DNA from: an uncultured Anaerolineales bacterium
Lineage (GTDB): Bacteria > Chloroflexota > Anaerolineae > CG2-30-64-16
Direction of reading: 5' to 3'
Assembly: GCA_964513075.1 (NCBI GenBank)
Contig: CAZELR010000008.1
Span: 23,876 to 87,875 of the forward strand
DNA: 64,000 nucleotides
Below are positions 1 through 25,374 of this stretch, one piece after another. Position 1 is the first letter of the stretch; each line of letters begins with the position of its first letter. The position numbers and the translations under genes are program-made. The notes below the pieces were generated by a model. It made no database searches. It was given only the letters and a program-made list of their open reading frames with translations, and was not told where the DNA came from.

Positions 1-430
1 CTTCGGGCTTGCAATCGAACTCGTTCTCGCATTCGACCTTGAACGAGAAGTCCACCGCAGACAGGAGCGGATCGAAACCATCAGGCCGGCCCGGATCGGT
101 GGCCGAACGGGTCAGGCGAAGGGTGTAGGTCGAGAAGTCACCCGGCTGGTCGACCTCAACCACGAGCACCAACGGATCGGACGCATCGACTGCGGCTTTA
201 AGCGCATGCACATCCCGGATGCGATCGCCGCCCTCGACGCGTATATTTCCTTCCGTAAGCGCGGCCACCCCGTCAGCCTTTAGAAAATGGACGAACAGGG
301 TGCGCTGACGCCCGGCCAAGGGCAGCTCTGGCCCATCGTGCACTTCGAGGAAGTCGATCCCGTTGAGCCCGGCCTTCTTCCGAACGGCCGCCCGGCGCTT
401 CTCATCGCAGCAAAAGTAAACCGTGCTCAT
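1..430 (-). CDS. Baseplate J-like (gp6/Afp11-like) protein, 3'-truncated by the window edge
   Basis: Reverse-strand ORF starting at ATG 428-430 (MSTVYFCCDEKRRAAVRKKAGLNGIDFLEV...) with no stop before position 1. Its ATG overlaps the gp25 stop (ATGA). The N-terminal CC-D-E-RRR motif resembles eCIS baseplate-J family N-termini. It is absent from the ORF track only because it has no stop. Confidence 0.5.
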   Translation of the reverse strand, partial: MSTVYFCCDEKRRAAVRKKAGLNGIDFLEVHDGPELPLAGRQRTLFVHFLKADGVAALTEGNIRVEGGDRIRDVHALKAAVDASDPLVLVVEVDQPGDFSTYTLRLTRSATDPGRPDGFDPLLSAVDFSFKVECENEFDCKPE

Positions 431-777
431 CGCGCAAACTCCGCAAGCTGGCGTTGTCCCGTCCGCTTGACCACATACTGCACTGCCACCCGCAACTGGC
501 TCTCGAACGCCTCCACCTGCACCCCTTCGACCGCGATAACATCGCCGAGCCACTGCTGGAGGCTGCCCTGGACGATGAATTGGGTGGCCGCGGCCAGCTC
601 GGTGCTGTTGGGCGCAAACACCAGGCTCAACAAGCCGCAGCCGAAGTCGGGGCGATTCACCCGTTCGCCCGGCGAGGTGAAGAGCACCTGCTCGATCATG
701 TCGCGGATGTGCGGGTCAGTCTCGGTGGCTGCGGTGCGGCCACGGCCGTCAATCTGATACGGATAATCGAGTTGCAT
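427..777 (-). CDS. Baseplate wedge protein, GPW/gp25 family (Afp9-like)
   Basis: 116 aa with the IEQVLFTSPGERVNRPDFGCGL motif typical of gp25/GPW lysozyme-like baseplate proteins. Confidence 0.8.
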   Translation of the reverse strand: MQLDYPYQIDGRGRTAATETDPHIRDMIEQVLFTSPGERVNRPDFGCGLLSLVFAPNSTELAAATQFIVQGSLQQWLGDVIAVEGVQVEAFESQLRVAVQYVVKRTGQRQLAEFAR

Positions 778-780
778 GGC

Positions 781-1101
781 TCACATCCCCGTTACGCGCA
801 TCTGCGCGGCGACGATCATCAACGGCATGCCGTTAGGCGCGCAGATCGCCTGGCTGTCCATCAGCAGCAGCGGCTGGCCGTTCGAGGTGACCCGCGTCGC
901 CGCGGAGACCCACTGCGCCGTGATGCATGGGCTGGGTGCGCCGCCAGCGTTGAAGACGCAGCCGGCCACCACGTATGGCGCAGCCATCGTCACCGTGGGC
1001 ATGCCGCCCACCAGCACCCGCGGGTTCGGCACAGTCGGTTGGGCCTGGCCGGCGTGCGCACACAATACGGTGGCGCCGACGTGAAGCAATGGACCTGGCA
1101 T
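781..1101 (-). CDS. PAAR-like (DUF4280) spike-tip protein
   Basis: 106 aa with a conserved Cys/Gly pattern (VLCAHAGQAQP, GCVFNAGGAPSPC, SQAICAPNGMPLMIV) matching DUF4280 PAAR-like proteins. It sits next to the spike gene. Confidence 0.7.
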   Translation of the reverse strand: MPGPLLHVGATVLCAHAGQAQPTVPNPRVLVGGMPTVTMAAPYVVAGCVFNAGGAPSPCITAQWVSAATRVTSNGQPLLLMDSQAICAPNGMPLMIVAAQMRVTGM

Positions 1102-1102
1102 A

Positions 1103-1621
1103 TCACACCACCACCAGCGCGCCCTGGTTGATCGTCACCGTGGGTCCGACCATCATGATGGACGCGCCCTTGCCGTTCTGGATATAGATGCCGCTGTCGT
1201 TCACAACGATCATCGCGCCGGTCAGGGTCTTCAGCACGATCCCCCCACTGACCGGGGTCGGCGCGGAGTCGCTGAGCAGCAGCGTGTTCTGGGCCGTGGT
1301 CTGCAAGACAACGTTCTGGCCCGGCGGCATCGCGGGCGGCACCAGGGCCAGCGCGGGCACCTCGGCCATGGATCCCCAAAATCCGCCCACCCAGATCGGA
1401 TAGTCAGGATCGCCGCGCTCGAACTCGACCCACACCCCGGACCCGATCGGCGGCGTCATGAACGCGCCCGCCTGCACGCCTGCATACGGCACGCACGGCA
1501 TCGCCCAAGTGGCTGGGATCAGATTGACATCCGAAACGCTGACCTGGATGCGCCCGATCTGCAGCGGATCGATGTTATTGACCACCGTCCCGCGGTACTT
1601 GCCATAGAATTTCTCGTTCAT
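1103..1621 (-). CDS. Baseplate spike protein, gpV/Gp5 N-terminal OB-fold family (VgrG-like, Afp8-like)
   Basis: 172 aa starting YRGTVVNNIDPLQIGRIQVSV..., the canonical phage baseplate assembly protein V motif. Confidence 0.75.
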   Translation of the reverse strand: MNEKFYGKYRGTVVNNIDPLQIGRIQVSVSDVNLIPATWAMPCVPYAGVQAGAFMTPPIGSGVWVEFERGDPDYPIWVGGFWGSMAEVPALALVPPAMPPGQNVVLQTTAQNTLLLSDSAPTPVSGGIVLKTLTGAMIVVNDSGIYIQNGKGASIMMVGPTVTINQGALVVV

Positions 1622-1641
1622 AGGTTTGTCCTATAACTCTC

Positions 1642-2772
1642 TCATGCCGGCACAACCGGCACGGTCGAAATCAGCCCGTTCCGCACCAACGTAAAACTCT
1701 GCTTGTACTCCCCGCGCTTGATCGTGTGCGTCACGCCCTTGACGTAGTACAGTCCATCGAACGCCGTGCCCGCGCCGCGCACGCCCACAAGCTGCCGTGC
1801 CTTGAGCACCCGGCCGTAGCGCAGCACATCCAGCGACCCGCTGCCGGTCACCGCATCGGATGAACGCGAGGCCCGTGTCAGCCCGAACACGGCCGCCCGG
1901 ATCGGCGACAGGTGCGCCGTGTCATGCAGCGGCTCGATATTCTTCGGTATAGGCGGCACCAGGCCCAGCGGCGGGTTGAGCAGCGACACGTCCGGAATCG
2001 GGATCGGAATCGGCGCCTTGGTCAGTTGGTTGTGGATGAACACCACCGGCAGCGTCGCCCGCTCATTGCTGAAGGTAAAGCTGAGTGACTCCACGTTGGT
2101 CAGCGCGTCCATGTTGTAGTTGAGCGCCGGCTGCGGCAGACCGACCCGCACCTCGGGCCCCCAATATGCGACGCTCATGCCTGGCAGCGGGCCAAAATTC
2201 AGATAGAAACTGTAGCCCACCTCTTCAGCCAGTTGCTTAATGTATGGCAGGTCCTTCCCGCGGTGGGCCGGGATACGCTCCACCGGAATCGGCACATCCA
2301 TCAGCACCGGCGGGATCACCATCGGCACAATCCCGAAGACCGCGTACTTGGCCAGGATCAACGCCACGCGGGCGAACTCGGGCATGGCCGGATAAGGGAT
2401 GCCGCTGAAATCGATGGCATCCATCACCGCAGTCAGGTCTTTGCCCTTGATCCGCAAGCTGAAGTGATCGGGATCGCTACCCGGCCCCACTTCGTGCTGG
2501 GTCATCACGCCATCCATAAGCACTTCCGGCGTCCCGTTGACCGTGGCCGCGATCACCACGCGCACCAGCGGGATAGAAGCGCCGCCGGAGAGCAGAAAGA
2601 CCGTCTGCAGCGGTGAGTTCTTGCCCAGGTCGAAGCTCAGCTCGAAGCCGCTGGTCGTCTCGCCCGAGGTCGTCATGACCTGGATTTCGGTCAACGCGTC
2701 CAGCATTTCCTGCGGCGCCGGCGCCGGCACCGCCGGCCCGATCATCAACGTGAGGTTGATACCCTTGAGCAT
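1642..2772 (-). CDS. Phage late-control gpD-like / baseplate hub protein
   Basis: Probable start MLKGINLTLMIGPAVPAPAP (an internal Met of the table ORF). This N-terminus is typical of tail/eCIS gpD-family proteins. It lies between the LysM-like and spike genes. Confidence 0.55.
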   Translation of the reverse strand: MLKGINLTLMIGPAVPAPAPQEMLDALTEIQVMTTSGETTSGFELSFDLGKNSPLQTVFLLSGGASIPLVRVVIAATVNGTPEVLMDGVMTQHEVGPGSDPDHFSLRIKGKDLTAVMDAIDFSGIPYPAMPEFARVALILAKYAVFGIVPMVIPPVLMDVPIPVERIPAHRGKDLPYIKQLAEEVGYSFYLNFGPLPGMSVAYWGPEVRVGLPQPALNYNMDALTNVESLSFTFSNERATLPVVFIHNQLTKAPIPIPIPDVSLLNPPLGLVPPIPKNIEPLHDTAHLSPIRAAVFGLTRASRSSDAVTGSGSLDVLRYGRVLKARQLVGVRGAGTAFDGLYYVKGVTHTIKRGEYKQSFTLVRNGLISTVPVVPA

Positions 2773-2779
2773 AATCGGC

Positions 2780-3169
2780 CTACGCTCCCGCGCCCGGTAT
2801 CCCCGCCGGCAGGGTAATCCGCACGACACGGCCCTCCGCCTCCAGCTCCTCCGGGGCCAGCACCGCGTTGGCGTCGCAGATGCGCCAGAACTGCTCAGGA
2901 TCGCCGAGGGCGCGGGCAGCCAGGGTATCCAGCCGGTCGCCCTGGGCCATCACGACCTCCTGCAACAGAGCATACGTCTCGGGTGGGGGAATGAAGCGCC
3001 GGCGCACGTAGGCCACCGGCGTGCCATCCGCTCGCGTGAGCACCGCGATCTCGACGCCGTGATAGCGGCTGGTGGGCGGAAACTGCGGCGCCGCGCCCCC
3101 GGCGCCGCCCAGCAGCGCCTGCAACGCCATGAATGGCGCCGCTGCGTTGGGGTCGACAATTCCACTCAT
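2780..3169 (-). CDS. LysM-like phage tail protein X (gpX) family
   Basis: 129 aa with the C-terminal DRLDTLAARALGDPEQFWRICDANAV LysM-like motif. It overlaps the next gene by 4 bp. Confidence 0.6.
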   Translation of the reverse strand: MSGIVDPNAAAPFMALQALLGGAGGAAPQFPPTSRYHGVEIAVLTRADGTPVAYVRRRFIPPPETYALLQEVVMAQGDRLDTLAARALGDPEQFWRICDANAVLAPEELEAEGRVVRITLPAGIPGAGA

Positions 3170-3816
3170 GGGAGACCTCCCAGTCCAAGGGTACTGAGCG
3201 TCCCGGCACCGCTGCGGGCCGCCAACTGCTCCTTCTGCTGCTGATAGGCCATGTAGAGGCTGCCCCCTTTCCCGCCGAAGCCCAGGTCATCCACGCTGAG
3301 CACGCGCATCCCTACACTCACCTTGGCCCGGATCGGGTTGAGGGCCGGGTCGAATGCCTCTTCGGTGATGCTGAATTCGGTGATGCGGACCGGCACCACC
3401 CGGTTCTTGCTCCAGACGAACAACGTCAGGCTGCCGATCATCGGCGCAATCTCCAGGGTCCCGCCCTGTGCCTTGGCATTGGCCGCCGTGAGCTGCGCCG
3501 TGGTCGGATAGACCAGCGTCTCCAGCGCTGCGAGCTGCGGGTGGATGCCCACCTCGGCCGCCTGCGCGTCCCCTGCAGCCAGCAGGTCGGTCGCGTCGAT
3601 CTCGGCCTCCAGCTTAAGGGTCTCGACCGGCGGCCCTTTCAACCGCAGTGCCTCCGAGCGGTCCGTGCTCTCGCCCGGCGACTTGGGCGCCAGCGAGCGT
3701 GTCAGCGTGTCCGGGTTGTATTGCAGCGCGATGACCCGCCGAACCACGCCGCTGTCCGGGTCGATCAGGACGATGCCGCCTTTCAAGAGGCGGGGGGAGT
3801 TGGTAAAAGTGGTCAT
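3166..3816 (-). CDS. Tail tube-family protein (second tube paralogue or tube initiator)
   Basis: 216 aa. IVLIDPDSGVVRRVIALQYNPDTL resembles the gp19/tube-fold signature. It is translationally coupled to its flanks. Confidence 0.5.
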   Translation of the reverse strand: MTTFTNSPRLLKGGIVLIDPDSGVVRRVIALQYNPDTLTRSLAPKSPGESTDRSEALRLKGPPVETLKLEAEIDATDLLAAGDAQAAEVGIHPQLAALETLVYPTTAQLTAANAKAQGGTLEIAPMIGSLTLFVWSKNRVVPVRITEFSITEEAFDPALNPIRAKVSVGMRVLSVDDLGFGGKGGSLYMAYQQQKEQLAARSGAGTLSTLGLGGLP

Positions 3817-5258
3817 GGCGCACTCACCGCTTCATCTGTGCTTTCTGCCTGGCTTGCCGGCGCACCGGGCGCCGCACCTGGGCCAACGCCCGGATTGGGA
3901 CTCTGGCCCGCCGCAGGTGCGGGCGCAGGTGTCACAATCTGCACCGTTGCCTCGTCGGTGTTCGTATTGCCCCGCACGCTGTCGCGCACCTGCACGGTCA
4001 CGCTGCCGGCCTGGTTCCCTGCCGTGAGCACGCCAGTGCGCGCATCGATGGTGCTGCCGAGCGCCGCTCCCTGGATGCTGAAACGCAGCGCGTGCCCCGC
4101 GGGCAACGTGCCGGGCAAGGTGTCGGCGATGACGGTGGTGCGGCTGAGCGTGCGCGCGTTGGTTGTGGGCGGAATGACGGCCGGCGTGGCGCGCGCCCCG
4201 GTGATGGCCGGCTGCCCCCTATAGGGATCGGTGTGTTCCTCGCCGTTGACGCTCGTGGCAAACTCTAGATCGTTCCCCACGACGCGCAGCGTGCGCACAT
4301 GCGACACGTCGCTGATCTTGTTCCACTGGGCTGCCTGCCGGCAGAACCAGTGAAGCTCTTGGGTGACGCTGAAGCTCACGGGAAGGGTATGCGCCGGTGT
4401 GGGATTGGACGCACTGGTAACGAAATCGCCCGCATTCACCAGCGAACGCTCCAAGGTGACGCTGTCGTGCGTGCCGCCAAGCTCGCCGTTTGTAATGAAC
4501 CAGTTCTGGCCGTTGGCAGGCGCAGCCGGCAGATTCCGCGTAGCCAGAGTGAACAAGCCGAAAGGTGTGGGAAGGGTGTGGCTAGTGCCAGTCGGATTCG
4601 GCAGCGCCGGGAACTGCTCTCCTACCGGCACATTCTCCAGCGAGCTAGTCAAGTTGTCGGCGCTGGTGAAAGCGTGATCGAACAGCGCGCCATAGACGGT
4701 GTTGGCGCTGGACGGCGCACCGGCATCCCGGGTGCGGTTGATGCCGGTGGGGTGGGAGCACAGAACAAGCTCTGCCAAGGCCGTACTGCTCGACCCATCA
4801 GCGAGCGTCTGACTGGCATGCACCTGGATGGTGCCGCCGGTTTGCGTGGCGCCGAAGGTGATAGCTCCCCCTGTGCTGATCCGCGTGCCGTTAGCAACCT
4901 GGGCCGTACCTGCGGCCAGCGACCAGGCCACGGCGCCGGGCAAATTCGCAGGCACTGTGGTGGCCATCACCTGGGTGATGCCGCACAACGGCACTTGCAC
5001 CGCGGTGCTGCCCGTAGTAAAAGCAACACCACTCAATGCCGCCGCGGCGAGCGCTGTCTGCGCTGGCGCGGGCGTCGCTTCCGCGCCTTCTCCCTCAGCC
5101 TGACCATGGCCTGTTGTGAACAGCTTGGCCGGCCGGTTGATGCTCAGTCTGGCCGATGCCAGGCCAGGCGCGGGATGCAGGACAGACGTCGCAGCAGTTT
5201 CAGTCTGTCGAACCAAGCGTGCGGCATGCATGCCGATCGAATGCTGCGCGTGTCCCAT
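3813..5258 (-). CDS. Hypothetical T/S/G-rich protein with a C-terminal Big_2-like Ig domain (tail fibre or cargo candidate)
   Basis: 481 aa of beta-rich low-complexity composition. The C-terminal FSIQGAALGSTIDARTGVLTAGNQAGSVTVQVRD resembles bacterial Ig-like group 2. Confidence 0.45.
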   Translation of the reverse strand: MGHAQHSIGMHAARLVRQTETAATSVLHPAPGLASARLSINRPAKLFTTGHGQAEGEGAEATPAPAQTALAAAALSGVAFTTGSTAVQVPLCGITQVMATTVPANLPGAVAWSLAAGTAQVANGTRISTGGAITFGATQTGGTIQVHASQTLADGSSSTALAELVLCSHPTGINRTRDAGAPSSANTVYGALFDHAFTSADNLTSSLENVPVGEQFPALPNPTGTSHTLPTPFGLFTLATRNLPAAPANGQNWFITNGELGGTHDSVTLERSLVNAGDFVTSASNPTPAHTLPVSFSVTQELHWFCRQAAQWNKISDVSHVRTLRVVGNDLEFATSVNGEEHTDPYRGQPAITGARATPAVIPPTTNARTLSRTTVIADTLPGTLPAGHALRFSIQGAALGSTIDARTGVLTAGNQAGSVTVQVRDSVRGNTNTDEATVQIVTPAPAPAAGQSPNPGVGPGAAPGAPASQAESTDEAVSAP

Positions 5259-5267
5259 CTTGCGTCT

Positions 5268-6134
5268 CTACACTTTCTTAGCCGTCTCTTTGACGGTGTT
5301 TGTTGGGCCGGCCTGGCCGATGCTGCTTTTATCGATGTCAACTTCGTACTTGATGATCGCGGTCTGTCCGTCCCGTAAATGAAGCGGATCGTAGGCCGCC
5401 AGGACGAACTTGGCCGAGTACTTCAGCGGAAAATCCTCGCTTTTGAGATCCTTGCGACACCATCCCGGCGCGTCTGCGATCACCAACTTGTCGTCGGTCG
5501 CCGTCTTGATCTCGTGGACGGGAGGTCCATCATCCCCATTCTTGGTGAAAGTCTGTCCGCGGCCCTCAGCCTTGCGATCCACCAGCCGTTTAGCCGATAA
5601 CTGGCTCGACTTGCCCCGATCCAAGTGGAAATGCACCTGGTGGACGTTGGCTATACTGCCGCCAGTTGTGTCGTTGTAGGGTCCCGGCTTGTTGAGCGTG
5701 AGATCGCACAGATCCTCTTTGGCCGGGTAGCCGCCCACGGCCCCGGTTGGACTAGTGACCAGGGTGATGTTGTCGACGTGTGGGTCGCCACTGCCAACCT
5801 GATATTGGGCCTTGTCACCGGGTGCTGTGACCTGCTCCTCCAGCATCGGTTGATCATTTTCCGCCCCCACCTGCGCTTGGTCGACCGCGGGGGCCGCCGC
5901 TTCCAGCTCCACCGCGGTGGCATCTTGCGGCATCGGCGCGCCACCGGCCCGCGTCACCGGCAGCCGGCCCAGCGCTGCCGCCGCAAGCGATGCTGCGCCG
6001 GGCCGTTCCGTAGCCGTATGCTCAGCTCCGCTGCGATCATGCAGCGAACGAAAGGCCAGGCGGCTGGGTACCAGCGGCTCCGACCGTCGAACCATCGCGA
6101 TCCGCGGCCGCGCCAGTTGCGTGAACTCGCTCAT
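5268..6134 (-). CDS. Hypothetical protein, eCIS cargo/effector candidate
   Basis: 288 aa. An N-terminal Ala/Pro-rich disordered leader of about 100 aa is followed by a roughly 190-aa globular domain with no motif I recognise. Its start overlaps the stop of the upstream small gene (ATGA). Confidence 0.5.
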   Translation of the reverse strand: MSEFTQLARPRIAMVRRSEPLVPSRLAFRSLHDRSGAEHTATERPGAASLAAAALGRLPVTRAGGAPMPQDATAVELEAAAPAVDQAQVGAENDQPMLEEQVTAPGDKAQYQVGSGDPHVDNITLVTSPTGAVGGYPAKEDLCDLTLNKPGPYNDTTGGSIANVHQVHFHLDRGKSSQLSAKRLVDRKAEGRGQTFTKNGDDGPPVHEIKTATDDKLVIADAPGWCRKDLKSEDFPLKYSAKFVLAAYDPLHLRDGQTAIIKYEVDIDKSSIGQAGPTNTVKETAKKV

Positions 6135-6429
6135 GAAACTGACCTTTCCGTCGCACCAGTCGGGCGACTCAGTTGCGTGAGGCCCTGGTGCAACGCCTGA
6201 TAGACTGCCTCTACCGCGCCCACGCCCACGGCCGCACCGGCCGCACCGGGGGCCAATGTAAACCGGCCGGAAGGCGTCAGCTCCACTCCGACGCCGTCAG
6301 CCAAGCCAGCTGGCAGACCGCGTTCGAGAATCAAGCGTGCCAACTCAGTTTCCAACGCGGCGGCAATCGCGTGCCGGTCGCCGGCCGGAAAGCCGTGCAA
6401 CACCAATTCATCGATCTCAATCGTCACGT

Positions 6430-6433
<4 letters not shown>
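6131..6433 (-). CDS. Small hypothetical protein coupled to the AAA+ ATPase
   Basis: 100 aa ORF with 4-bp overlaps at both ends inside the operon. Confidence 0.45.
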
Positions 6434-8243
<1,810 letters not shown>

Positions 8244-8247
<4 letters not shown>

Positions 8248-9548
8248 GTGATCTTCACCTTGGGGCTGGCGAACTTGCCGGTCCCGTCGACGCTCAAAAT
8301 ACTCTCTGCACCGTCCACCTGCACCGTCACCAGGTAATCCCCCGTCTCGACATTGCTGAACGCGAAATCGATGGCCGCGGTTTCGGTCGCAAGGCCGGTG
8401 ATTCCATTATCGCGCGGGGCCGGGAAGCTGTATGAGCGCGCGGGACGATCTTCCGGCGCATCGAGCTCATACAGAAACAGCGTCACCCGCTGGACCTTGC
8501 CCACCGCAGGGGTAAATTTGATATTAAGCGTCCCGGTGGCTGCGGCGACGGACGCCGGCACGGTGACAACCGGGTGCAGGACGAGGGCGGCCGCGTTGGA
8601 CTCGACCCCGCGATGCGGCACGCCAGGGTCCGGCTCGCCCATCAACACCTCCTGCACCACCTGCACGCCCAGCACACCGGCTCGCAAGCCGGCGATTCCC
8701 ACCAGCGGGAAGGTGATGCGGTTTGGCGTGACCGTGAGGCTCGGGGGCGGGACGAATGCCTCTCCCAGCCGCACACGCGTCACTTCGCCCTTCAGGCTGC
8801 TGCCGGCGATTTCAACCGTGCTGGCTGCCGTGATCCGCGGGTCGGCCGGCAGGGGCGCGGTGGAAGCCACGGCCGCGATCTGCGGCCGCACCAACGGCAG
8901 GACGATGCTCTTGTACTTCAACACCGGCAGCGCCGAGCGGGTGGATTTCTGACTCTCGATCAGGACCACCGAGGCACGGTACGTCGCGGTCAGCCGGTAA
9001 TGCGTCTGAAACGCAGCCCAGAGCTTGGACAACTCCTCCGCACCCAGCGCTTCAGGCGTGATCTTCACCTGTTCCACTTGGTCGGCCAAGTCGGCCGCGA
9101 CGAGCGTCATAAACGCAGGGGGAAGCTGTGCGCCGGTGACCGGCGATGGAAGCTCCAACGCCTTGCGGATGGCCTCACGGCTGAGCCCCGGGGTCTCGTG
9201 CAAGACCTGCATCGCATAACCCAGCAGGATCTCGGCTACAAAGTCATCACCCCCATAGGCCGACAGCAGATAATGCAGGTCCAACGCCAGGGGCGGGTTG
9301 GCGATGCGGGCGCCCAACGCGTCCCTGGCTGGCAGCGCGTGATTGCGCCACCCCTGATTTGGCGTCACCTGATACAAAAACAGATTGAGCTGCGGCTGCT
9401 CGTTGGGACCGGTGGCGATCATGTCCGGCGGCTTGGTGGTGACTCGAACAACGCCGACGGCTGCAGCCAAGTCGTGTTGGATCACGCCATTATTCAGCAG
9501 ATCCCGCAGCACCGCAGTGGTTGCGGCGATGGCCAGTGCACTGCTCAT
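8244..9548 (-). CDS. DUF4255 (Pvc16/Afp16-like) tail terminator/cap protein with a C-terminal extension
   Basis: An N-terminal TAVLRDLL...LNLFLYQVTPNQGWRN matches the DUF4255 signature. Confidence 0.7.
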
Positions 9549-10279
9549 GGTTGCCCTCCGCTGTCGCCGCGCCGGCCCTCGGTGCTCAGATAGTCGGCGA
9601 GCGACGTTCGTTTCGCAGCCGGCTGGGAGGAGGTCGCCGCTTTAGGGCCAGGCGCCGGTGCGGCCCGCACCTCGATGCGACCGATATGCACATGGATCGT
9701 GGGCTCCTGCAGCGCCGGCGGTTCAGAGGCAAGCGCCTGCGCCTGATCGCGCGCCCTATATACTGTAATCCTATCCGTACTGCTTGTTTCTACCGCTGGC
9801 CGGACGTCCTTGGGGCGAATGGCTATGCGCACGGAGTCGCGCGGCGCGGCTCCAGCCGGTGACAGCGCCAGGGTGCGCCGTTCGAGCCGATCCCCCAGCG
9901 GCGCCCCATCGCGCACGGTCAGCGCAGGCCGCAGCCGCCCCAGCTGAACCGGCAGGAGCGAGTCGGGGCGTGTCGTCACCTGAAGTGCAGTCCGGGCGGC
10001 AACTTGGGCTCCGGCGGCCGGAGTCAGCTGTGGCGGCTCACCGCGGGCAGACGGAGCTTGTCCGCCTGCCAGACGCCTCCCAGCCTCGTCGACGGCCAAC
10101 TCATCGAAATCGCTCGCGCTACCCAGCGGCGCCACGTATGGCGCTACCACGTCTGTGGCGCCGGCATCACGGGCGCCACGTGTGGCGCGTTGATAGACGA
10201 TCGGCAGCAGAGGCCGGATCGCCGCATCCACGCCCACTGTGCGCCGTGCCAGATCTGCCAGGTAATTCATCGCTGCCAT
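9545..10279 (-). CDS. Hypothetical Ala/Arg/Pro-rich protein with a C-terminal HIGRIEVRA motif (possible tape-measure-like or assembly protein)
   Basis: 244 aa of low complexity. It lies between the tube and cap genes with a 4-bp overlap. Confidence 0.5.
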   Translation of the reverse strand: MAAMNYLADLARRTVGVDAAIRPLLPIVYQRATRGARDAGATDVVAPYVAPLGSASDFDELAVDEAGRRLAGGQAPSARGEPPQLTPAAGAQVAARTALQVTTRPDSLLPVQLGRLRPALTVRDGAPLGDRLERRTLALSPAGAAPRDSVRIAIRPKDVRPAVETSSTDRITVYRARDQAQALASEPPALQEPTIHVHIGRIEVRAAPAPGPKAATSSQPAAKRTSLADYLSTEGRRGDSGGQP

Positions 10280-10286
10280 GAGTGCC

Positions 10287-11084
10287 TCATCCCTGCACCA
10301 TCTCGATATAGCCCTGTCGCCGCGCCGGGGTCAAAGCCAGGATGTCCGCTTCATGCCAACCGTAAGCACGGGCCAGGATATCAACTTCGCGTAACAGTTG
10401 TCTGGCCTGGGCCGCAATCTCCGCCCAGAAGAACCCGGCAATGTCGAACGGCGACTGCCAGCGGTGACCGCAAGCCGGACACGCCAGGTCCAGCAGGATC
10501 TCCGCCTGCGGATCGTGTGCGGCAGCCGTCGCCCCGATCGCAGCGCTCACCTCGGCCGCAATATCCTCGGGAAGCTCAGCGCCCCCAACGGCAACCCCGT
10601 CCAGATTAGCCGCCAACACGCACCGGGTCAGCAGCGCCCGCTCCGCCGCCGCAGCCACAGCCAGATCCCCGACGGCCTCCAGGTCTCCGGCGGCCGGCAG
10701 TCGAAAAGTCACCTGGCTGCCCGGCCGCGACCACTGGAACGAAGCCTTTCCCGCATCCGCGACCTGCGTCTCTTCGGATAGTCGCAGGTCGCGCGTCCGG
10801 GCAGTGAACTCCAACGCCTCGTCGCAGGCCGGGCAGTGTGCGGTCGCCGCCAGTTCCGGGCCGAACGTCCGCTCGCGAGCCTCCAGCAGCAGTGCATCCC
10901 TGCATCCCACCGTCAGCCCGGCCGGCGCGTCCGGGGCCAACTCAGGACACGCTGCAGCCAGGATGGCCAGCCCACGGCCGCCGCTGTTGCGCTGCGCCCC
11001 ACGCTCCCAGACATCGAGAATGTCGTCGCCCGTGAGCGCTCTTACGGGAGTGAACGTCCTCACCGGGGTGAGCGCTTGCATCAT
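10287..11084 (-). CDS. Hypothetical protein with two CPAC motifs (zinc-ribbon-like)
   Basis: The start is moved to the internal MMQALTPV so that it does not overlap the tube gene. It carries C-P-A-C-(x)n-C-P-A-C. Confidence 0.5.
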   Translation of the reverse strand: MMQALTPVRTFTPVRALTGDDILDVWERGAQRNSGGRGLAILAAACPELAPDAPAGLTVGCRDALLLEARERTFGPELAATAHCPACDEALEFTARTRDLRLSEETQVADAGKASFQWSRPGSQVTFRLPAAGDLEAVGDLAVAAAAERALLTRCVLAANLDGVAVGGAELPEDIAAEVSAAIGATAAAHDPQAEILLDLACPACGHRWQSPFDIAGFFWAEIAAQARQLLREVDILARAYGWHEADILALTPARRQGYIEMVQG

Positions 11085-11094
11085 CACAAATCCG

Positions 11095-11616
11095 CTACGG
11101 TTCAACGAACAACGGCTCGGACGGCTCGACGACATCGTAGTCCCGTTCCCAACCCTCGTTCTCCAGCTTGATGCTCTGGATCAACACCGCATTGGCGTTG
11201 GCATCCAGGTCGGCCTGGGCCTGGAACTCAGAGACCCAGCAGCGGTAGACCTTATACGACAGGGCGAGCTGGCCGGCCTCGTTGAAGACATCGATGATGA
11301 TGTCCTTACGAAAGTCCTTCAGCGAGACCTCGGCGCCCAGTCCCGACCCGAAATTCCATACTTTATTGGCCCACTGCTCGAATTCCTTGTCGTGGGTCAC
11401 GCCCCGCTCCAGGGTGATGGCTTCGTATTCGGTGCGGCCGGGCGACTTCCGGCTGCTGCTGGGGTCGCCGCCTTCACGGTGCTTGACCACTTCGGTGGTG
11501 CGCTTGAGCGCGCTCACCTTGCTGATTCCGGCGACATAGCGGCCATCCCACTTAACGCGGAACTTGAAATTCTTGTAGGGATCGAAACGTTGTGCGTTGA
11601 CACTGAATTGAGCCAC
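11095..11616 (-). CDS. Contractile tail tube protein (T4 gp19-like/Afp1-like)
   Basis: 173 aa with FDPYKNFKFRVKWDGRYVAGISKVSAL, the canonical tube motif. Confidence 0.85.
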   Translation of the reverse strand: MAQFSVNAQRFDPYKNFKFRVKWDGRYVAGISKVSALKRTTEVVKHREGGDPSSSRKSPGRTEYEAITLERGVTHDKEFEQWANKVWNFGSGLGAEVSLKDFRKDIIIDVFNEAGQLALSYKVYRCWVSEFQAQADLDANANAVLIQSIKLENEGWERDYDVVEPSEPLFVEP

Positions 11617-11628
11617 GGCTGCCTCCCC

Positions 11629-13158
11629 TTACGCCTGGAGTTGTCCGGCTATCTGCTGGATCTTGAGGATCACGAACTCGGCCGGTTTGAGCGGAGCGAA
11701 GCCCACAAGGATGTTGACGATGCCCCGGTTGCGATCACTTTGAGTGGTCGTGTCTTTGTCGCACTTCACGAAATAGGCGTCGCGCGGGGTGACGCCTTGA
11801 AACGCGCCCTGGCGGAACAGGTCATGCATAAAGGCACCGACGTTGAGGCGGATTTGCGCCCACAACGGCTCGTCGTTGGGCTCGAAGACCACCCACTTGA
11901 GGCCGCGGTAGAGGCTCTCCTCCAGGAACAACGCAAGCCGGCGCACCGGCACGTATTTCCACTCCGAGCCGCGCTCGTCGTTGCCTTGCAGGGTGCGCGC
12001 CCCCCAAACCACGTTGCCGTAAACGTTGAAATTGCGGATGCAGTTGATCGCCTGAATGTTGAGGGCGCCGTTCTCCAGGTCGGTCAACGGCGCAGTCACG
12101 CCGCTGACACCCGTCAGGCTGGCCTCTGTTCCCGCTGGCGCCTTCCACACGCCGCGACTTACATCCGTGCGTGCGTAGATGCCGGCAACGAAGCCCGAAG
12201 GCGGGAAAGCCCGCAGCCGGTTCTCCTGTTTCGGATCGGCCGCCTTGACCCAGGGGAAGTATAACGCCGCATTAATTGCGTCCGCGCCGGTCAAACTGTT
12301 GTTGAGGCCGGCATTTAGGCTGGAGAAGGTGGCGGATTCGGCGCTGTCGACTATGAGGAAGGCCCGGTGATCACGAGCGAACTTCTGAAGTTGTCCCACC
12401 GTGGCCGCCTCTGTTTCGCCCGGCACGATCAACAGATTGAAGAGGTCGACCCGGTCTAGCAGATTGACGCCACCGCTGCCACCCCCCGCCTGCAGCGCGG
12501 TCTCGAACGCCCCGGCCGGATCACTGGGAACCAACACCGTACCGTCCGAGCCGCTTCCCAGCATTGCCGGGGTCGCGATATCCGCACTGAAAGTGGGCGC
12601 CGGGCTTTCGGGCACGATCAGCGCCGCATCGACGAGGGCCGATCCTGCCGACAGCACATGCGGTGCGTAGCGCGCATCTTTGCTGTCCAACGAGAGGTTC
12701 TCGAACGACTCGACGACCACAGGTGTTGCGACGCCCACCGGCTTATAGGCCACCTGCAGGCGGAACCGCGTCAGGTCATCTGCGCGGCGCTTGATCGTGA
12801 CCCCGTAGGCCTCGGCCCAGTCGCCGGCGCTGCGCGCCGTCACTTTGAGCTTGCCGTCGAGGGTCGCTTCGGCCACGGCCTGATCACCGGCCACCAGACG
12901 AATGATGTAGGCCTGCTGGCCACCGTTGTTGAAGAAGTGGTAGATGCTGTAACCGAGCAGGCTCCGGACGTCAAGCCCGCCGTAGGTGCGCTCGAAGTCA
13001 GACCAACTCAAAACAAGCTGGGCGCGGTCGGTGGGCCCCTTGGCCGCCCAGCCCACAAACGCGGCGATCGAGGTCGCCACCCCACCGATGGTCCGCACGC
13101 CGCTGGGGATCTCCTCGACATACACCCCAGGGTAGGTCGGTGTCACTGGCATGCTCAT
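11629..13158 (-). CDS. Contractile tail sheath protein
   Basis: 509 aa with N-terminal PGVYVEEIPSGVRTIGGVATSIAAFVG, the canonical sheath signature. An AGGAGG RBS lies 5 bp upstream. Confidence 0.9.
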   Translation of the reverse strand: MSMPVTPTYPGVYVEEIPSGVRTIGGVATSIAAFVGWAAKGPTDRAQLVLSWSDFERTYGGLDVRSLLGYSIYHFFNNGGQQAYIIRLVAGDQAVAEATLDGKLKVTARSAGDWAEAYGVTIKRRADDLTRFRLQVAYKPVGVATPVVVESFENLSLDSKDARYAPHVLSAGSALVDAALIVPESPAPTFSADIATPAMLGSGSDGTVLVPSDPAGAFETALQAGGGSGGVNLLDRVDLFNLLIVPGETEAATVGQLQKFARDHRAFLIVDSAESATFSSLNAGLNNSLTGADAINAALYFPWVKAADPKQENRLRAFPPSGFVAGIYARTDVSRGVWKAPAGTEASLTGVSGVTAPLTDLENGALNIQAINCIRNFNVYGNVVWGARTLQGNDERGSEWKYVPVRRLALFLEESLYRGLKWVVFEPNDEPLWAQIRLNVGAFMHDLFRQGAFQGVTPRDAYFVKCDKDTTTQSDRNRGIVNILVGFAPLKPAEFVILKIQQIAGQLQA

Positions 13159-13159
13159 A

Positions 13160-13340
13160 CCCTCCTACAATTGAAGTCCGACTGTCAGTGCGACTATCAG
13201 TGCGACTATCAGTCGCGACTTGCAGTCGTCCGTCGAAGCACTGTCGTCCACTTCGAACGCTAAAAACGTCTATACTATTGAATCATAATTGCAACGGTTT
13301 TGTATGGTATTTGTATTACAAACAAGTCAACAAAAATCCC
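13160..13340 (-). promoter_or_regulatory. eCIS operon leader/promoter region
   Basis: An AT-rich block (13262-13340) that is unusual for this genome, followed by four tandem 12-bp units and then the RBS and sheath start. Confidence 0.5.
13180..13228. repeat. Four tandem 12-bp units (GACTNTCAGTGC), each an inverted repeat GACT-n3-AGTC
   Basis: Read directly: gactgtcagtgc gactatcagtgc gactatcagtcgc gacttgcagtcg. The array lies 22-70 nt upstream of the sheath ATG. Confidence 0.8.
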
Positions 13341-13363
13341 GTTTCCCACTGAGAAACGGGATT
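13331..13363 (-). terminator. Intrinsic terminator after the lipoprotein gene
   Basis: A perfect 11-bp stem aatcccgtttc/gaaacgggatt with a 7-nt loop, followed on the minus strand by TTTTT. It begins 12 nt after the stop. Confidence 0.65.
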
Positions 13364-13374
13364 GCACAGTTGAA

Positions 13375-14475
13375 TCACTGAATCTCAAACGTCCAGAACC
13401 AAGTCACCGGCTCCCCGCTTTTCGGCGTGATCACGATCTGGACGCTGTGGGGACCTTTTTGCAAATCTGCGCCGCCCGGCCATCTGTTGCCGTGCTCGGA
13501 GAAACGCCACACGGTGCAATCCGGCTCACCGCCGCCGAAAACACAGTAGCCCGCGTTGCGTTCGGTGCGCTGGTGCACCGTCCGGTTGCTGTCATTGATC
13601 GTGAAGCTAACGGAGTCGATGCCCGCGCCATCGGTCCGCCCGACGTTGGTGTCGAAAACTTCCACCTGAAACACGATACGATCGCGGAAGACCATCGGGT
13701 TGCTGACCTCGTATGACTCGAAGCCGGGCAGCGCCACGTTGCATCCCCCCTTCACGTTCCGGCTGTTGCGGATGTTCGGGGTTTCCGAGCAACCGCCATC
13801 AACGGGCAAGATCGCGATCGCTGGAATTCGCGTTGGGGTCGCGGGCGGTGGGGTGGCCGTGACCGGTCGCGGGGTGGGAGTCGGAGGCGCGCTGCCGGCA
13901 GGTAGTGATGCCACGTCAAGATTGCATGCGACAAACTGCGCGCCCGCGCTGATCCACCCGCGCTGCCCGCCGGCATCCACCTGCACTTCGATCCATTGAC
14001 CGCTGGGGAACCCGCGACTCACAAACGATAGCGGTGTCAACGCAGCACCCTGCGGAAGGGTGCGCAGCGGCGGATTGAAGACCGTGCCGGGCCCGCCGCG
14101 CAGGTTCAATCCTGCCGACATGACCTCGCAGCGCGGAGCCGTGATTGCCGGCGTCTCTGGCGGCCGGGTCGCGGTGGCCTCGACGACCACAGGCGGCTCA
14201 GTGGGCGCCGCCTCGCCGGGAGTCGACGTAGCCCCGTTGTCGGCCGGAACAACATCAGTCGAAGCGCTCCCTGCGCCGGCTTGCACCACCTGGGTGGCGG
14301 CCACCGCGGCATCGACGGTCGCCTGGAGGCGCCCCTGCGCGGATGCGGTCGCAACAACCGCTGCATCTACGGTCGCCTGCACATTGGCCTCGCCTCCGCT
14401 GCCGCAACCCGCCAACACAGCGGCAAAAAGGACGAACCCTATCAGCCTGAGCCAAGCGCCCTTCTTCATCATCAC
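13375..14475 (-). CDS. Secreted lipoprotein with an SH3b-like domain
   Basis: Signal peptide plus lipobox (LAGC), a Thr/Pro-rich linker, and GLNLRGGPGTVF...GQWIEV, which is SH3b-like. Confidence 0.6.
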   Translation of the reverse strand: MMMKKGAWLRLIGFVLFAAVLAGCGSGGEANVQATVDAAVVATASAQGRLQATVDAAVAATQVVQAGAGSASTDVVPADNGATSTPGEAAPTEPPVVVEATATRPPETPAITAPRCEVMSAGLNLRGGPGTVFNPPLRTLPQGAALTPLSFVSRGFPSGQWIEVQVDAGGQRGWISAGAQFVACNLDVASLPAGSAPPTPTPRPVTATPPPATPTRIPAIAILPVDGGCSETPNIRNSRNVKGGCNVALPGFESYEVSNPMVFRDRIVFQVEVFDTNVGRTDGAGIDSVSFTINDSNRTVHQRTERNAGYCVFGGGEPDCTVWRFSEHGNRWPGGADLQKGPHSVQIVITPKSGEPVTWFWTFEIQ

Positions 14476-16901
14476 CCTCCGATCCCCTGCAACGCATCTT
14501 CCACCTGCTGCCTACCGGGTTGGCAGACAGCAGCGACGATCTTCTCGCCTAACGTGCGATCCTCCGGCAGCCTGCGCGCCTGTTCCTCGCAGCCGTCGAA
14601 GGCGCCGCGGGCCTCGCTGAGCAGGCTGGCTGCGCGGGTCCTGTCGCCCGCACGCAGGGCCAGATTGCCCTGCTGCAGCCTGGCGACGCCCAGGTAAGCG
14701 TAGCCCTGACCCAACAGCCGGTACTGCTTCAACTCGTCCAACGGCGCCAGAAGCAGACGCAGGTCCGCCGCCGCCCGCTCAAAGAGCTGCTCGGCCGCCA
14801 GGTCGCCGGCCTCGGGATCATCCAGTTGGTAGGTGGCGGTCGCCCGCGCCAGGGTGGCATTGGCCAGCGCCAATCGCGCTACCAATTCCATGCGCGTGTC
14901 TCGAGATGCGACGGACAGGCCAACCGCCTGTTTGTAGGCCGCCTCCGCCTGTTGGAGCAAGCCGTCTTCGACCAACTGGTCTGCAGGTGGAAGGGCTGCG
15001 GCGCTGCGCAGGTACGCGCCGCCCAGCACGATCGCCGCGCGCTCGCGTTGGGGGTTCAAGGCGAGCGCTTGCTCAGCAGCCATCTCAGCCTCTGCGTTGC
15101 GCCCCAGGAACAGCGCCTGCCGCGCGATAAAATAGTAGAGCACGTCGCCTCCGCCGCCCGGCCGGCGCGCCGTTGGGGTTGTCGACTCCACGGTCCGCAG
15201 CAGCGCCAATGCCTCTTCGTGACGTCCCAACACATCGTCGCGCAGCGCTAATAGCACCCCGAACAGCAGGGACGCGCGGTCCCGAATCGGGCCGGCGGCC
15301 GCCTCGCGCGCCAGGCTGTCGGCCGATGCCAGGTTAGCCGCCAACACGAGATCGTCTCCCAACTGGTAGCGACCGATGGTCTCGTTGGCTTCGGGACGTT
15401 GGCGAGCCGACACATAAAACTCCTGCACCAGGTGTTCCGTATCCCCGTCAGACGCCAGGTGGCTATAGAGCACCACGTCGGCGCCAACGCGGGCCGCCAG
15501 CGCCTCGGCAGCCGCGGCTCGCTGCTCGGCAGTGGCCCCGACAATCGCGCCGAGCCGGACCCGCTTCTGCATAAACGACATCCCGTCGTGCCAGATGCCT
15601 ACGCGCTGACCGGGCTCCAGCGCGTCGTTCGCCGCGGCCAGGGCGTTCACCATCCAGTCGCGGATCAACCGGCCATCCGGCGTCGCGCTTGCCGCGCCGG
15701 CCGCGTCCAGGCGGGGCACTTCGGCCACCGCGATATTAAGCGTGTTCGTCGCATCCATGGTCGTGGGCACGGCCATGTTGTAGACGCCAAAGAGGACAAG
15801 GATGAGCAAAAGCAGGATCCCTGCCGGCAGTGCTATCTTCTTGCGCCAATTGAGGGGTCCCGGCTCCGGCTGGCGCCACAACTGCCCTTCGGCGGATCGC
15901 ATGTAGAGGACCGGCGTGGCCCATTCCTCAGCGCAGCAGCCGGTGAAGAGCGCCTTGCGCGCCTCGGCCAGGGCTGAGTCTACCCCAGCGCCGTTGGCCA
16001 GCGCGGCGTAGAAGCTGCGTGCCAACGCAATCGCGGCCTGATCACTGATCGCCGTGCGCATGGCGATCACCGCGGGCACGCCGCCGCGCACCAAGCGCTG
16101 CGCCACGCCGGCATATGGGTCGCGGTCGGAAGATTCCGCACCCTGGCACGCGTTGAGCAACACCAGGCGCAACTGATCATGCCCCTGCAGCAGGGTGCTG
16201 AACGCCTGGCCGGTCACCGCCTGGGCCGCACCGTCCTCAGCCTGAAACATCAGCACGCTGTCATTGCCCGCGGGATCGAAGGCGCCATGGCCGAGGAAGT
16301 GCAGGATATGATACTCCTGCTGCTGCAACTGCCGCTGCAGCGCCTCCAGTGTGGGCGGCTCCAGCCGGTCGAGGGTGACGATGCCGCGGCTCCGCAGCTC
16401 CTCCAGCGCAGCGGACAAATTGGCCCACTCACGCTCGACATCCAGCACGGGGTAACCGGCCGGACTGGCAATCACGGCCAATACTCGCAGACGCAGCCCA
16501 GGCGCCAGATTAGGGGGCGGCTCGGGCAAATCCATGTAGCGGACCAGGGGGGTCTCGGACGAAAGCGCGAGGAAGCGGTCGCGTGAGCCGTCGTAGATCA
16601 GCTCCCACGGCAGGTTGGCCAGTTCGGGCACTTGTGTCAGCCGCAGGCGGAGGCGCAGCCCACGGTCCTGCTGCTGGGCCATATCCAGGCTGCGCCGCCA
16701 GCACGTCAGCACCTCGCCGCGGAAGGTCGCATCAAAGAGCTGAGCGCCAACCTCCTGGCTGGCAGCCGCCACGTCGAGGCTCTCGAGCGGCAGCAGGTCC
16801 GCCCGGGCCTCGCCTGCGGGCGAGCTGAGCACCTGGCCGCGGTAGCCCTGTGCAGTGCGCTCGATCTCCAGATCGAAGTTGAGATATCCTGCTTCTGCCA
16901 T
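14472..16901 (-). CDS. CHAT-domain (caspase-like) protease with a transmembrane segment and C-terminal TPR repeats
   Basis: 809 aa. The N-terminus (LNFDLEIERTAQGYRGQVLSSPAGEA) is typical of CHAT proteins. The His/Cys dyad sits in HILHFLGHG ... LVLLNACQGAES. The TM helix is KIALPAGILLLLILVLFGVY. TPR-like repeats occupy the C-terminal half. Confidence 0.8.
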   Translation of the reverse strand: MAEAGYLNFDLEIERTAQGYRGQVLSSPAGEARADLLPLESLDVAAASQEVGAQLFDATFRGEVLTCWRRSLDMAQQQDRGLRLRLRLTQVPELANLPWELIYDGSRDRFLALSSETPLVRYMDLPEPPPNLAPGLRLRVLAVIASPAGYPVLDVEREWANLSAALEELRSRGIVTLDRLEPPTLEALQRQLQQQEYHILHFLGHGAFDPAGNDSVLMFQAEDGAAQAVTGQAFSTLLQGHDQLRLVLLNACQGAESSDRDPYAGVAQRLVRGGVPAVIAMRTAISDQAAIALARSFYAALANGAGVDSALAEARKALFTGCCAEEWATPVLYMRSAEGQLWRQPEPGPLNWRKKIALPAGILLLLILVLFGVYNMAVPTTMDATNTLNIAVAEVPRLDAAGAASATPDGRLIRDWMVNALAAANDALEPGQRVGIWHDGMSFMQKRVRLGAIVGATAEQRAAAAEALAARVGADVVLYSHLASDGDTEHLVQEFYVSARQRPEANETIGRYQLGDDLVLAANLASADSLAREAAAGPIRDRASLLFGVLLALRDDVLGRHEEALALLRTVESTTPTARRPGGGGDVLYYFIARQALFLGRNAEAEMAAEQALALNPQRERAAIVLGGAYLRSAAALPPADQLVEDGLLQQAEAAYKQAVGLSVASRDTRMELVARLALANATLARATATYQLDDPEAGDLAAEQLFERAAADLRLLLAPLDELKQYRLLGQGYAYLGVARLQQGNLALRAGDRTRAASLLSEARGAFDGCEEQARRLPEDRTLGEKIVAAVCQPGRQQVEDALQGIGG

Positions 16902-16971
16902 CTCTGTTCCCTTCGATGATGATTATAACAGGATAAAACTAGCACAAAGTAATCACAAACACAAAACACAA

Positions 16972-17006: not shown

Positions 17007-17029
17007 AAGCTCAGTTCAGCCCAAGAGCC

Positions 17030-22859: not shown

Positions 22860-22881
22860 CCAGAAAACGTCAGTAGATGGC

Positions 22882-25367: not shown

Positions 25368-25374
25368 CCGGAGG

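Follow-up and report, generated by a model that had tools for sequence, protein, structure and literature searches.

What does a closely packed run of minus-strand genes at one end of this DNA encode: part of a phage, or an injection machine of the cell's own and, if the latter, where does it keep its payload? The stretch analysed here is 64,000 nt long (the window), and the genes in question occupy its positions 1-13374. [quoted passage not shown] We put the probability at about 85% that the region is the 5' three-quarters of a chromosomal contractile injection system (CIS) operon of the Afp/PVC superfamily, belonging to lineage II and having the IIa/IIc-like organisation common with the CIS of Streptomyces davawensis. 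The host genome is probably that of a member of the Chloroflexota.

The operon and its core machine

The minus strand of 1-13158 carries an unbroken chain of 16 packed open reading frames (ORFs), all intact and with coupled starts and stops, the J-like gene being cut at the window edge. All 16 genes of the earlier note are where it had placed them, most are named by Pfam, and its count of seven ATGA overlaps was exact (9545-9548, 8244-8247, 6430-6433, 6131-6134, 3813-3816, 3166-3169 and 427-430). From the 5' end of the operon the features are as follows.

13159..13374, minus strand: 5' leader and promoter region, 216 nt, the sole long intergenic gap of the operon
11629..13158, minus strand: sheath (Cis2, Afp2-4 type), a single gene; PF04984 and PF17482
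11095..11616, minus strand: inner tube protein (Cis1, Afp1/5); PF06841, E 1.6e-45
10287..11135, minus strand: T4_baseplate-like protein, 282 aa; PF12322, E 6e-9; position kept in relatives
9545..10279, minus strand: fast-evolving low-complexity protein, 244 aa; directly upstream of the cap
8244..9548, minus strand: cap or tail terminator (Afp16/Pvc16, DUF4255); Pvc16_N, E 2e-49, 168 bits against a cut-off of 27
6430..8247, minus strand: AAA+ ATPase (Afp15/Cis15 position); PF00004, E 4e-27; PF22977 winged-helix domain, E 3e-16
6131..6433, minus strand: conserved small protein, 100 aa here; always after the ATPase
5268..6134, minus strand: slot protein 1, 288 aa, putative cargo; no Pfam match
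3813..5258, minus strand: slot protein 2, 481 aa, putative cargo; no Pfam match
3166..3816, minus strand: tube-initiator-like second tube-family protein (tube part of Afp7/Cis7); CIS_tube, E 7.6e-5, below the cut-off
2780..3169, minus strand: LysM-like small protein (LysM part of Afp7/Cis7); Phage_tail_X, E 3e-3, below the cut-off
1642..2772, minus strand: spike hub, the gp27-like N-terminal half of VgrG/Afp8 as an ORF of its own; named by family profile
1103..1621, minus strand: spike OB-fold protein (gpV/gp5-like half of VgrG/Afp8); PF04717, E 7e-21
781..1101, minus strand: PAAR-like spike tip (Afp10 position); DUF4280, E 1.4e-4, below the cut-off
427..777, minus strand: gp25-like baseplate wedge (Afp9); PF04965, E 3.6e-17
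1..430, minus strand: J-like baseplate protein (Afp11/Cis11a), first 143 codons; the gene starts at 430 and is cut by the edge

The cap and the ATPase are core markers of eCIS and have been used to exclude prophages and R-type bacteriocins (PMC6899500). The earlier note had taken the pair to mark a CIS rather than a prophage tail, and both proteins do match their families strongly. The rest of the core set of Chen et al. 2019 is there as well: alongside the Afp16 cap and the Afp15-type ATPase stand the Afp1/5 tube and the Afp2/3/4 sheath, together with Afp7, Afp8, Afp9 and Afp11, the second tube-family protein and the LysM-like protein being weak matches and Baseplate_J being seen in full-length relatives. 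Relatives were collected by scanning with the J-like N-terminus, which gave 59 loci in a set of one genome per species and 80 loci in metagenomes; the best J-like relatives in either scan are at most 73-75% identical. The core proteins of the operon are 55-79% identical to those of the relatives, with no truncations.

Compared with solved structures in the PDB, the sheath lies nearest to those of Halogeometricum (9ezm, E 4e-73) and Streptomyces (8bky, E 8e-73; 8bl4). Matches to the tCIS sheath All3325 (E 9e-40) and, remotely, to the pyocin sheath (E 1.7e-13) are weaker. It has more than 8000 relatives, with copies of at least 64% identity in Acidobacteriota, Nitrospira, Verrucomicrobiota, Myxococcota, Proteobacteria and Chloroflexota; the closest named one, at 86%, comes from a metagenome-assembled genome (MAG) of the Anaerolineae. 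The tube protein matches tube chains of AlgoCIS, tCIS and the Salmonella CIS, that of AlgoCIS only distantly (E 5e-16). The cap found no match in the PDB. The ATPase consists of an N-terminal winged-helix domain and one Cdc48/VCP-like AAA module, with the AAA domains of VCP/Cdc48 as its best PDB matches; it adjoins the cap in all related loci and is likened to Afp15/Pvc15 by its domains and position. The small protein that follows it has no family match in Pfam or NCBIfam, and keeps its position in 22 loci at 85-118 aa among homologues.

After the tube gene, the earlier note had seen two unknown genes. This stands for the 244-aa protein, which matches no family, and does not quite stand for the 282-aa protein: with its PF12322 match the latter is not fully unknown, although it found no match in the PDB or NCBIfam. 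Its true start is probably near 11087, past the tube stop.

The spike and baseplate genes are less uniform in the strength of their matches. The second tube-family protein is 63-74% identical in relatives, and its family profile weakly matches chain 9rce_H of the Salmonella CIS. Searched as a profile, the LysM-like family weakly matches LysM domains in Kbp, in the tCIS protein All3321 and in a Streptomyces LysM protein, and its position is conserved. The hub has no Pfam match; its family profile matches residues ~36-342 of the solved VgrG/Cis8 chains 9rce_F (E 1e-12, the best), 7aef_q, 7b5h_AJ and 9gtr_q. This is the protein that the earlier note called a gpD-like hub. Its true start is most likely the ATG at 2772, which reads MLKGINL as in relatives, rather than the GTG at 2829. 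Between hub (1642-2772) and gpV (1103-1621), each an ORF of its own, lies a gap of 20 nt, so that VgrG is split here. The PAAR-like protein keeps its Cys/His columns and its place right after the spike, and its profile gave only a non-significant PDB match, to the phiKZ PAAR protein. Full-length J-like relatives are 800-900 aa long, with Baseplate_J.

The N-termini of both Baseplate_J proteins of this lineage carry conserved cysteine motifs, 'FCCDExRR' in the first such protein of a locus and 'CGCCxG' in the second (window 1-430; L003:9998-12535 and L003:12532-15006; other loci). These could be metal-binding or disulfide sites.

Much of this gene list would also suit a prophage tail module or an R-type tailocin. 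Myophage tails, too, have sheath, tube, gp25, gpV, J and LysM/gpX-like genes; R-type pyocins and the tails of P2, Mu and T4 share the same sheath-tube-baseplate machine, including gp25, gpV, gpJ, gpI/gp48-like and LysM/gpX-like parts, and the window ends within the operon, so that one flank is unseen. These pyocins and tails, however, have no AAA+ ATPase, DUF4255 cap or DUF4157 cargo genes, whereas the cap and the adjoining ATPase are present here and DUF4157 cargo genes are carried by the relatives. On the upstream side of the sheath, the expected place of phage head genes, the genes are cellular. In relatives the side that is unseen here holds a second J-type gene (J2), a gpI-like gene and a fibre gene, and the sheath flank holds mutL or transposases. 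For phage content we examined the four genes of 13375-20855 and the 30 largest of 21350-64000; the latter are housekeeping and envelope genes, and the earlier statement that the window lacks genes for capsid, portal, terminase, integrase and lysis holds. The cap and ATPase, the cellular genes in place of head genes and the baseplate and fibre genes of relatives together make a prophage tail or tailocin very unlikely. Canonical type VI secretion systems (T6SS, i-iii) have a two-part TssB/C sheath and a TssJLM membrane complex; the operon has a single sheath protein of phage type, and no Tss membrane-complex families were found among the window proteins.

Gene order and kin

Is the order of the genes as unusual as it looked? 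All 59 genome loci, from about ten phyla, share the order cap, ATPase, small protein, a variable slot, second tube-family protein, LysM-like protein, hub, gpV, PAAR, gp25, J, J2, gpI-like protein and DUF6519 protein, and the 80 metagenome loci have the same order. Contigs reached through homologues of the sheath and of the slot proteins show the upstream half: sheath, tube, T4_baseplate-like gene, a short low-complexity gene, cap and ATPase. As every related locus retrieved has the same order, it is not non-canonical, as the earlier note had called it. Sheath and tube first, cap and ATPase in the middle and baseplate last is, on the loci compared, the standard of the lineage.

The note had also suggested a new lineage. 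It was right that the order differs from that of Afp/PVC, that there is a single sheath gene and that the lineage is another one, but this organisation has already been described, both as lineage II (PMC6899500) and in the S. davawensis CIS (PMC11126660). Afp of Serratia entomophila and PVC of Photorhabdus, of subtype Ia, share with the window the tube, sheath, Afp7-like, Afp8-like, gp25, PAAR and J-like proteins, the AAA+ ATPase and the DUF4255 cap. Their sheath genes number three and their tube genes two, VgrG is fused and an Afp14 tape measure is recognisable; the ATPase and cap come last among the structural genes, and the payload genes lie at the 3' end. The window, in contrast, has one sheath gene, a split VgrG, the cap-ATPase pair between the tube and baseplate modules and its putative cargo in mid-operon.

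Chen et al. 2019 divided the superfamily into lineages I and II, with gene orders specific to each subtype (PMC6899500). In their scheme afp8 is split into gp27-like and gp5-like ORFs in IIa, IIb and IIc, afp11 is present in two copies in IIa and IIc, afp10 is missing only in IIb, and Afp14 is unrecognisable throughout lineage II (PMC6899500). The window has the split afp8 and it has afp10. The second afp11 copy is seen in relatives as the Baseplate_J protein after J, and in the window it would fall beyond position 1. Wherever a criterion can be read in the window, the result thus agrees with IIa or IIc. Among solved sheaths the nearest is that of clade IIa (9ezm), barely ahead of the IId sheaths (4e-73 against 8e-73). 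The IId systems, those of Streptomyces coelicolor and S. lividans, and the Anabaena tCIS all belong to lineage II and have associated DUF4157 proteins; IId has a fused VgrG and a single Afp11, unlike the split VgrG of the window.

The closest organisation is that of S. davawensis, whose CIS was placed by Nagakubo et al. 2024 in a 'Tme-harbouring' group from Actinobacteria, Proteobacteria and Chloroflexota (PMC11126660). Among the Streptomyces clusters compared in that study it alone has a single Afp1/5 tube homologue, and its synteny differs from theirs (PMC11126660). In both loci one sheath gene is followed by one tube gene, and the effector, or slot, is right upstream of the baseplate genes, as the 8th gene in both by locus-tag positions. 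An extra small ORF comes after Afp7 and another after Afp8, corresponding to the split tube-initiator/LysM and hub/spike pairs. The S. davawensis cluster has two Afp11 homologues, as do the relatives of the window, and fibre genes at its end. What the window lacks is a tme-like gene, which would be the largest ORF of the cluster and have DUF4157 in its N-terminal part; its slot genes encode 288 and 481 aa, two short all-beta proteins without DUF4157, a nuclease domain or a TM-like (transmembrane) segment.

The CIS of the archaeon Halogeometricum borinquense, also described as an archaeal T6SS of clade IIa (Zachs et al. 2024, PMC11566945; sheath PDB 9ezm), provides a more distant comparison. 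Besides the nearest solved sheath, it has two cis11 genes, no recognisable Cis14 or Cis6, and a variable mid-cluster 'interspacing region' with DUF4157 proteins and toxin-immunity pairs. It differs in being archaeal and plasmid-borne, in its two structural subclusters with an 8.7-kb spacer of nine genes, and in a conserved six-helix membrane-anchor gene, Hbor_38620, with proven membrane-bound, contact-dependent action; the window has no anchor candidate.

From the relatives it is possible to suggest what lies beyond the edge. What follows J in them is another Baseplate_J protein (~930 aa), then a protein resembling Mu gp48 / P2 gpI (~690 aa) and last a DUF6519 protein that often has a beta-helix; DUF6519 is listed, as eBAP5, among the domains that anchor eCIS tail fibres (PMC12923769). 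Below position 1 we would therefore most likely find the rest of J (in the closest relatives J is about 820-900 aa long), a second J-like gene (~840-930 aa), a Mu gp48 / P2 gpI-like gene and a DUF6519 tail fibre (~870-1000 aa), with cellular genes after them.

Several points count against our assignment of the operon. Three proteins, the tube-family protein (3166-3816), the LysM/gpX-like protein (2780-3169) and the PAAR-like protein (781-1101), score below the Pfam cut-off, yet their place and sequence are kept in every relative. The end of the operon is outside the window, so that its completeness and unseen content are judged from relatives no more than 75% identical. The placement in IIa or IIc and the proposed kinship with S. 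davawensis are drawn from gene content and, for the synteny of the Tme group, from locus-tag positions.

The mid-operon slot and its proteins

Where, then, does the payload lie? Between related loci only one stretch does not align, that from the small post-ATPase gene to the second tube-family gene. Where this slot is filled in relatives it holds one to eleven genes, most with the eCIS_core domain (DUF4157, PF13699). This domain is a published marker of eCIS toxins (PMC8213781), and DUF4157 proteins are reported to bridge effectors to the spike complex (PMC13277306). A hidden Markov model (HMM) of DUF4157, built from 50 slot domains of relatives and applied to the 46 loci that cover the whole slot, found the domain in the slot of 37 and left nine without it. 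The slot of these 46 loci ranges in length from 34 to 6281 nt, and in three it is empty. Ten slot proteins of relatives were tested, and all have PF13699 except one SUFU-like and one small protein. The motif HExxH occurs in 66 of 114 slot proteins and GHDFSxV in 39 of them, as against none of 389 core proteins.

The slots of individual relatives differ widely. The close relatives L001 and L002 each have a ~1570-aa DUF4157 protein. In an Abditibacteriaceae MAG (L003:2584-6104) a 974-aa fusion of DUF4157 with a GH-E (HNH/EndoVII) nuclease is followed by a SUFU-family gene; the two look plainly like a toxin-immunity pair, which suggests an antibacterial use of this branch. In four loci (L011, L047, L048 and L049) the slot encodes one protein only, 1530-1712 aa long and without a match to the DUF4157 HMM; these giants may be Tme-like proteins without the marker domain or with a diverged copy. 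The largest slot, L062:3727-13566 (JGI 3300086681, Ga0683308_0000040), has eleven genes in ~10 kb, with four DUF4157 proteins and homologues of both slot proteins of the window. It shows that the slot gathers putative cargo cassettes.

The earlier note had suggested that any toxin might lie beyond position 1. The conserved cargo position is instead this mid-operon slot, exactly where its 'two unknown proteins' sit, and we think it likelier that the window itself contains the payload than that it lies past the edge.

Both slot proteins have the look of a leader with a body attached. In the structure model of the 288-aa protein the N-terminal 114 aa are predicted to be disordered and the C-terminal 170 aa to form a beta-sandwich. 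It has 87 homologues in 5.8 billion proteins, which occupy the same slot in the two loci whose context was looked up. The 'GHDFSxV' stump of DUF4157 is found in 35 of 46 aligned members of this family and the HExxH core in none of the 46. For the 481-aa protein the model has residues 1-69 and 456-481 disordered around an all-beta, multi-domain Ig-like (immunoglobulin-like) core, with pLDDT 85-97 over 70-455; its structure matches are generic Ig/Big_2 only. Of the 16 homologues that it has in 5.8 billion proteins, nine show an N-terminal 'LQRxCACG...DUF4157 (HExxH)' ahead of a common core of 370 aa. In the window copy and its nearest relatives, a short disordered N-terminus is all that stands at that place. 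In the slot families the leader reads 'LQRKCxCG...GHDFSxV', a DUF4157 stump without the HExxH core. Both families are absent from most related loci.

A shared loading sequence of the two N-termini was also considered and found no support: 44 of 500 shuffles scored at least as high as their local alignment, whose score is 45.

AlgoCIS of Algoriphagus machipongonensis (PMC8894135) provides the model for such an architecture. Its cargo consists of a disordered leader, an optional DUF4157 and a variable C-terminal domain, and loading needs the AAA+ ATPase and the N-terminal leader, DUF4157 being dispensable (bioRxiv 10.64898/2026.05.27.728243). The slot proteins of the window have the leader and body without DUF4157. 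In other respects AlgoCIS differs, with a tape measure (Alg14), a fused Cis8 spike (7aef_q, 581 aa), a 692-aa sheath and proven extracellular release. As the slot is variable and rich in DUF4157 in relatives, and the leader-and-body layout is that of AlgoCIS cargo, we read both slot proteins as cargo, with moderate confidence.

Two negative results tell against the cargo reading. Structure and profile comparison found no toxin or enzyme fold in either slot protein, so that a cargo role is argued from position, family context and architecture. Nor is there any DUF4157 in the 64-kb window, where the purpose-built HMM run on the six-frame translation gave a best E of 0.67 and Pfam, taken up to E 10 on the slot proteins, gave none.

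The missing domain could mean that the locus is in decay, its DUF4157 effectors gone and a working machine no longer made, and both slot proteins do have leader motifs that are degenerate in comparison with their families. Decay sits badly, however, with 16 intact and coupled ORFs, with the coding-type GC content at third codon positions (GC3) kept in the slot genes and with core proteins that show no truncation at 55-79% identity to relatives. Moreover, the nine related loci without a slot DUF4157 resemble the window in this, and AlgoCIS cargo loads without its DUF4157 domain. We consider decay quite improbable.

Could one or both of the slot proteins instead be a structural or assembly part, such as a tape measure, a tube plug or a baseplate accessory? 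The 481-aa gene sits directly upstream of the hub genes, as does the tape-measure gene in phages, and Tme of S. davawensis, remotely homologous to tape measures, binds the spike and the tube initiator. No Afp14 homologue was found in the operon, and in place of an enzyme or toxin fold the 481-aa protein has Ig-like domains, which are common in phage structural proteins. Yet the slot can be empty, and so no obligatory ruler can lie there. Both families are rare and missing from most related loci, both proteins are all-beta, unlike helical or coiled-coil tape measures, and family members are fused to DUF4157, the marker of cargo. A structural role is therefore unlikely, and we keep to the reading of the two proteins as cargo.

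Another protein to consider as such a part is the 244-aa one upstream of the cap. Pfam and NCBIfam detect no Afp14-like tape measure in the window operon and give no match for this protein, which has nine relatives among 1.84 billion representative proteins, most matching its C-terminal 60 residues only. A C-terminal motif, [IV]xVxIGR[IVL]E[VIL]R...SL[DE][DE]YL, is kept at the same position in seven loci (L017, L020, L023, L025, L029, L037 and L057), the taxa of the motif-bearing loci being Nitrospira, Desulfobacterota, Betaproteobacteria, SAR324, Acidobacteriota, Actinomycetota and Chloroflexota. The length of the upstream-of-cap protein varies from ~120 to 650 aa across loci, and the longest is that of L025, whose slot is empty. 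We infer that it is a candidate tape-measure-like, length or assembly factor.

Taken together, the locus may be a working DUF4157-less variant, in which the slot proteins would be new non-enzymatic beta-sandwich and Ig-like cargo families loaded only through a vestigial leader, with the protein at 9545-10279 (IGRIEVR...SLxDYL) as the real length or assembly factor. As a joint proposal this is doubtful and we offer it tentatively.

Mode of action, neighbouring genes and meaning

By homology with solved CIS, we infer an assembly pathway for the machine. The hub, gpV spike, PAAR tip, gp25 and J-like proteins would build the baseplate, and the tube-initiator-like and LysM-like proteins would seed the tube. 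The gp19-like tube and the sheath subunits would polymerise on this seed until the DUF4255 cap stopped growth. The AAA+ ATPase may load cargo into or onto the tube and spike through the disordered N-terminal leader of the cargo, and contraction of the sheath would push spike, tube and cargo into the target.

Whether the machine deserves the term 'extracellular' is another matter, the odds of a released and a cell-bound particle being roughly equal. A machine that acts attached inside or on its producer, in the manner of a membrane-bound T6SS or in the cytoplasm, is a real possibility that falls somewhat short of even. The nearest solved sheath is that of the Halogeometricum CIS, a contact-dependent killer attached to the cytoplasmic membrane. 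The next are those of Streptomyces, where particles are described as intracellular in S. lividans and other model species. All lineage-II systems with imaged deployment (S. coelicolor/lividans, Anabaena and Halogeometricum) are cell-bound or intracellular, those of IId acting intracellularly and the Anabaena tCIS being anchored to thylakoids. The authors of the S. davawensis study speculate on particles attached to the cell envelope (PMC11126660), and the window has no lysis genes. Attachment is harder to reconcile with the operon itself. None of its window-encoded proteins has a TM-like segment, which leaves no membrane anchor inside the visible operon, and there is no homologue of a known anchor, although anchors may be encoded elsewhere. 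The relatives also end with a DUF6519 and beta-helix protein, and such a fibre would speak for a particle, free or exposed, that binds a target.

The leader of the operon holds three tandem 12-nt repeats at 13175-13210, on the minus strand GACAGTCGGACT followed by two copies of GATAGTCGCACT, which lie ~15 nt upstream of the ribosome-binding site of the sheath gene. They could be an operator or a leader element. Rfam gave no match in the window, the operon leader included. At 13335-13363 lies the intrinsic terminator of the upstream gene, a 13-bp stem and then a T run.

The region 13375-20855 has four genes, for an SH3 protein, a CHAT/TPR protein, a class-V aminotransferase and an FG-GAP/BACON protein. 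The CHAT-protease/TPR protein (14472-16901, minus strand, one TM segment) is coupled by a GTGA overlap to the SH3 protein, which is lipoprotein-like (13375-14475). The pair lies directly upstream of the CIS operon. We considered it as part of the CIS and rejected it, as the strong terminator stands between it and the operon and as in the relatives checked it does not adjoin the CIS; the pair is probably unrelated to the CIS. The gene at 18321-20855 (minus strand) encodes an 844-aa secreted-looking protein with FG-GAP repeats and BACON-like Ig domains, and its GC content is lower (0.57-0.62). At 22786-27357 an ECF-type (extracytoplasmic function) sigma gene is followed by two large DUF5666/DUF5667 proteins of 622 and 660 aa; this may be an anti-sigma or envelope module, with no evident link to the CIS operon. 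The remaining genes of the window include nusA, infB, truB, ribF, era, PEPCK, mdh, ligA, fhs, tgt, uppP and an ABC/FtsX cluster. ARAGORN called two tRNAs, Met at 35386-35461 and Thr at 41126-41209, within tgt and infB. Both calls are most likely false positives, since Rfam, at its gathering score, has no tRNA there.

Nothing here overturns current views of these machines, and the practical value of the locus is modest. It is a real but fairly ordinary find, which adds an intact CIS locus from an uncultured genome, probably of the Chloroflexota, a phylum without a studied CIS, to an organisation in which only S. davawensis has been characterised, together with a haloarchaeal cousin. What it may offer are leads. 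By the comparison, this branch keeps its cargo in a defined mid-operon slot, holding from nothing to ~6 kb of genes, which provides a simple rule for finding effectors. The slot families occur with and without DUF4157, and most members of the 288-aa family keep no more than a short leader stump, so that they provide natural minimal leaders to test; this pattern fits recent evidence that the leader, and not DUF4157, directs loading. The motif-bearing protein upstream of the cap is a concrete lead for the tape-measure or assembly factor that has gone unrecognised in lineage II.

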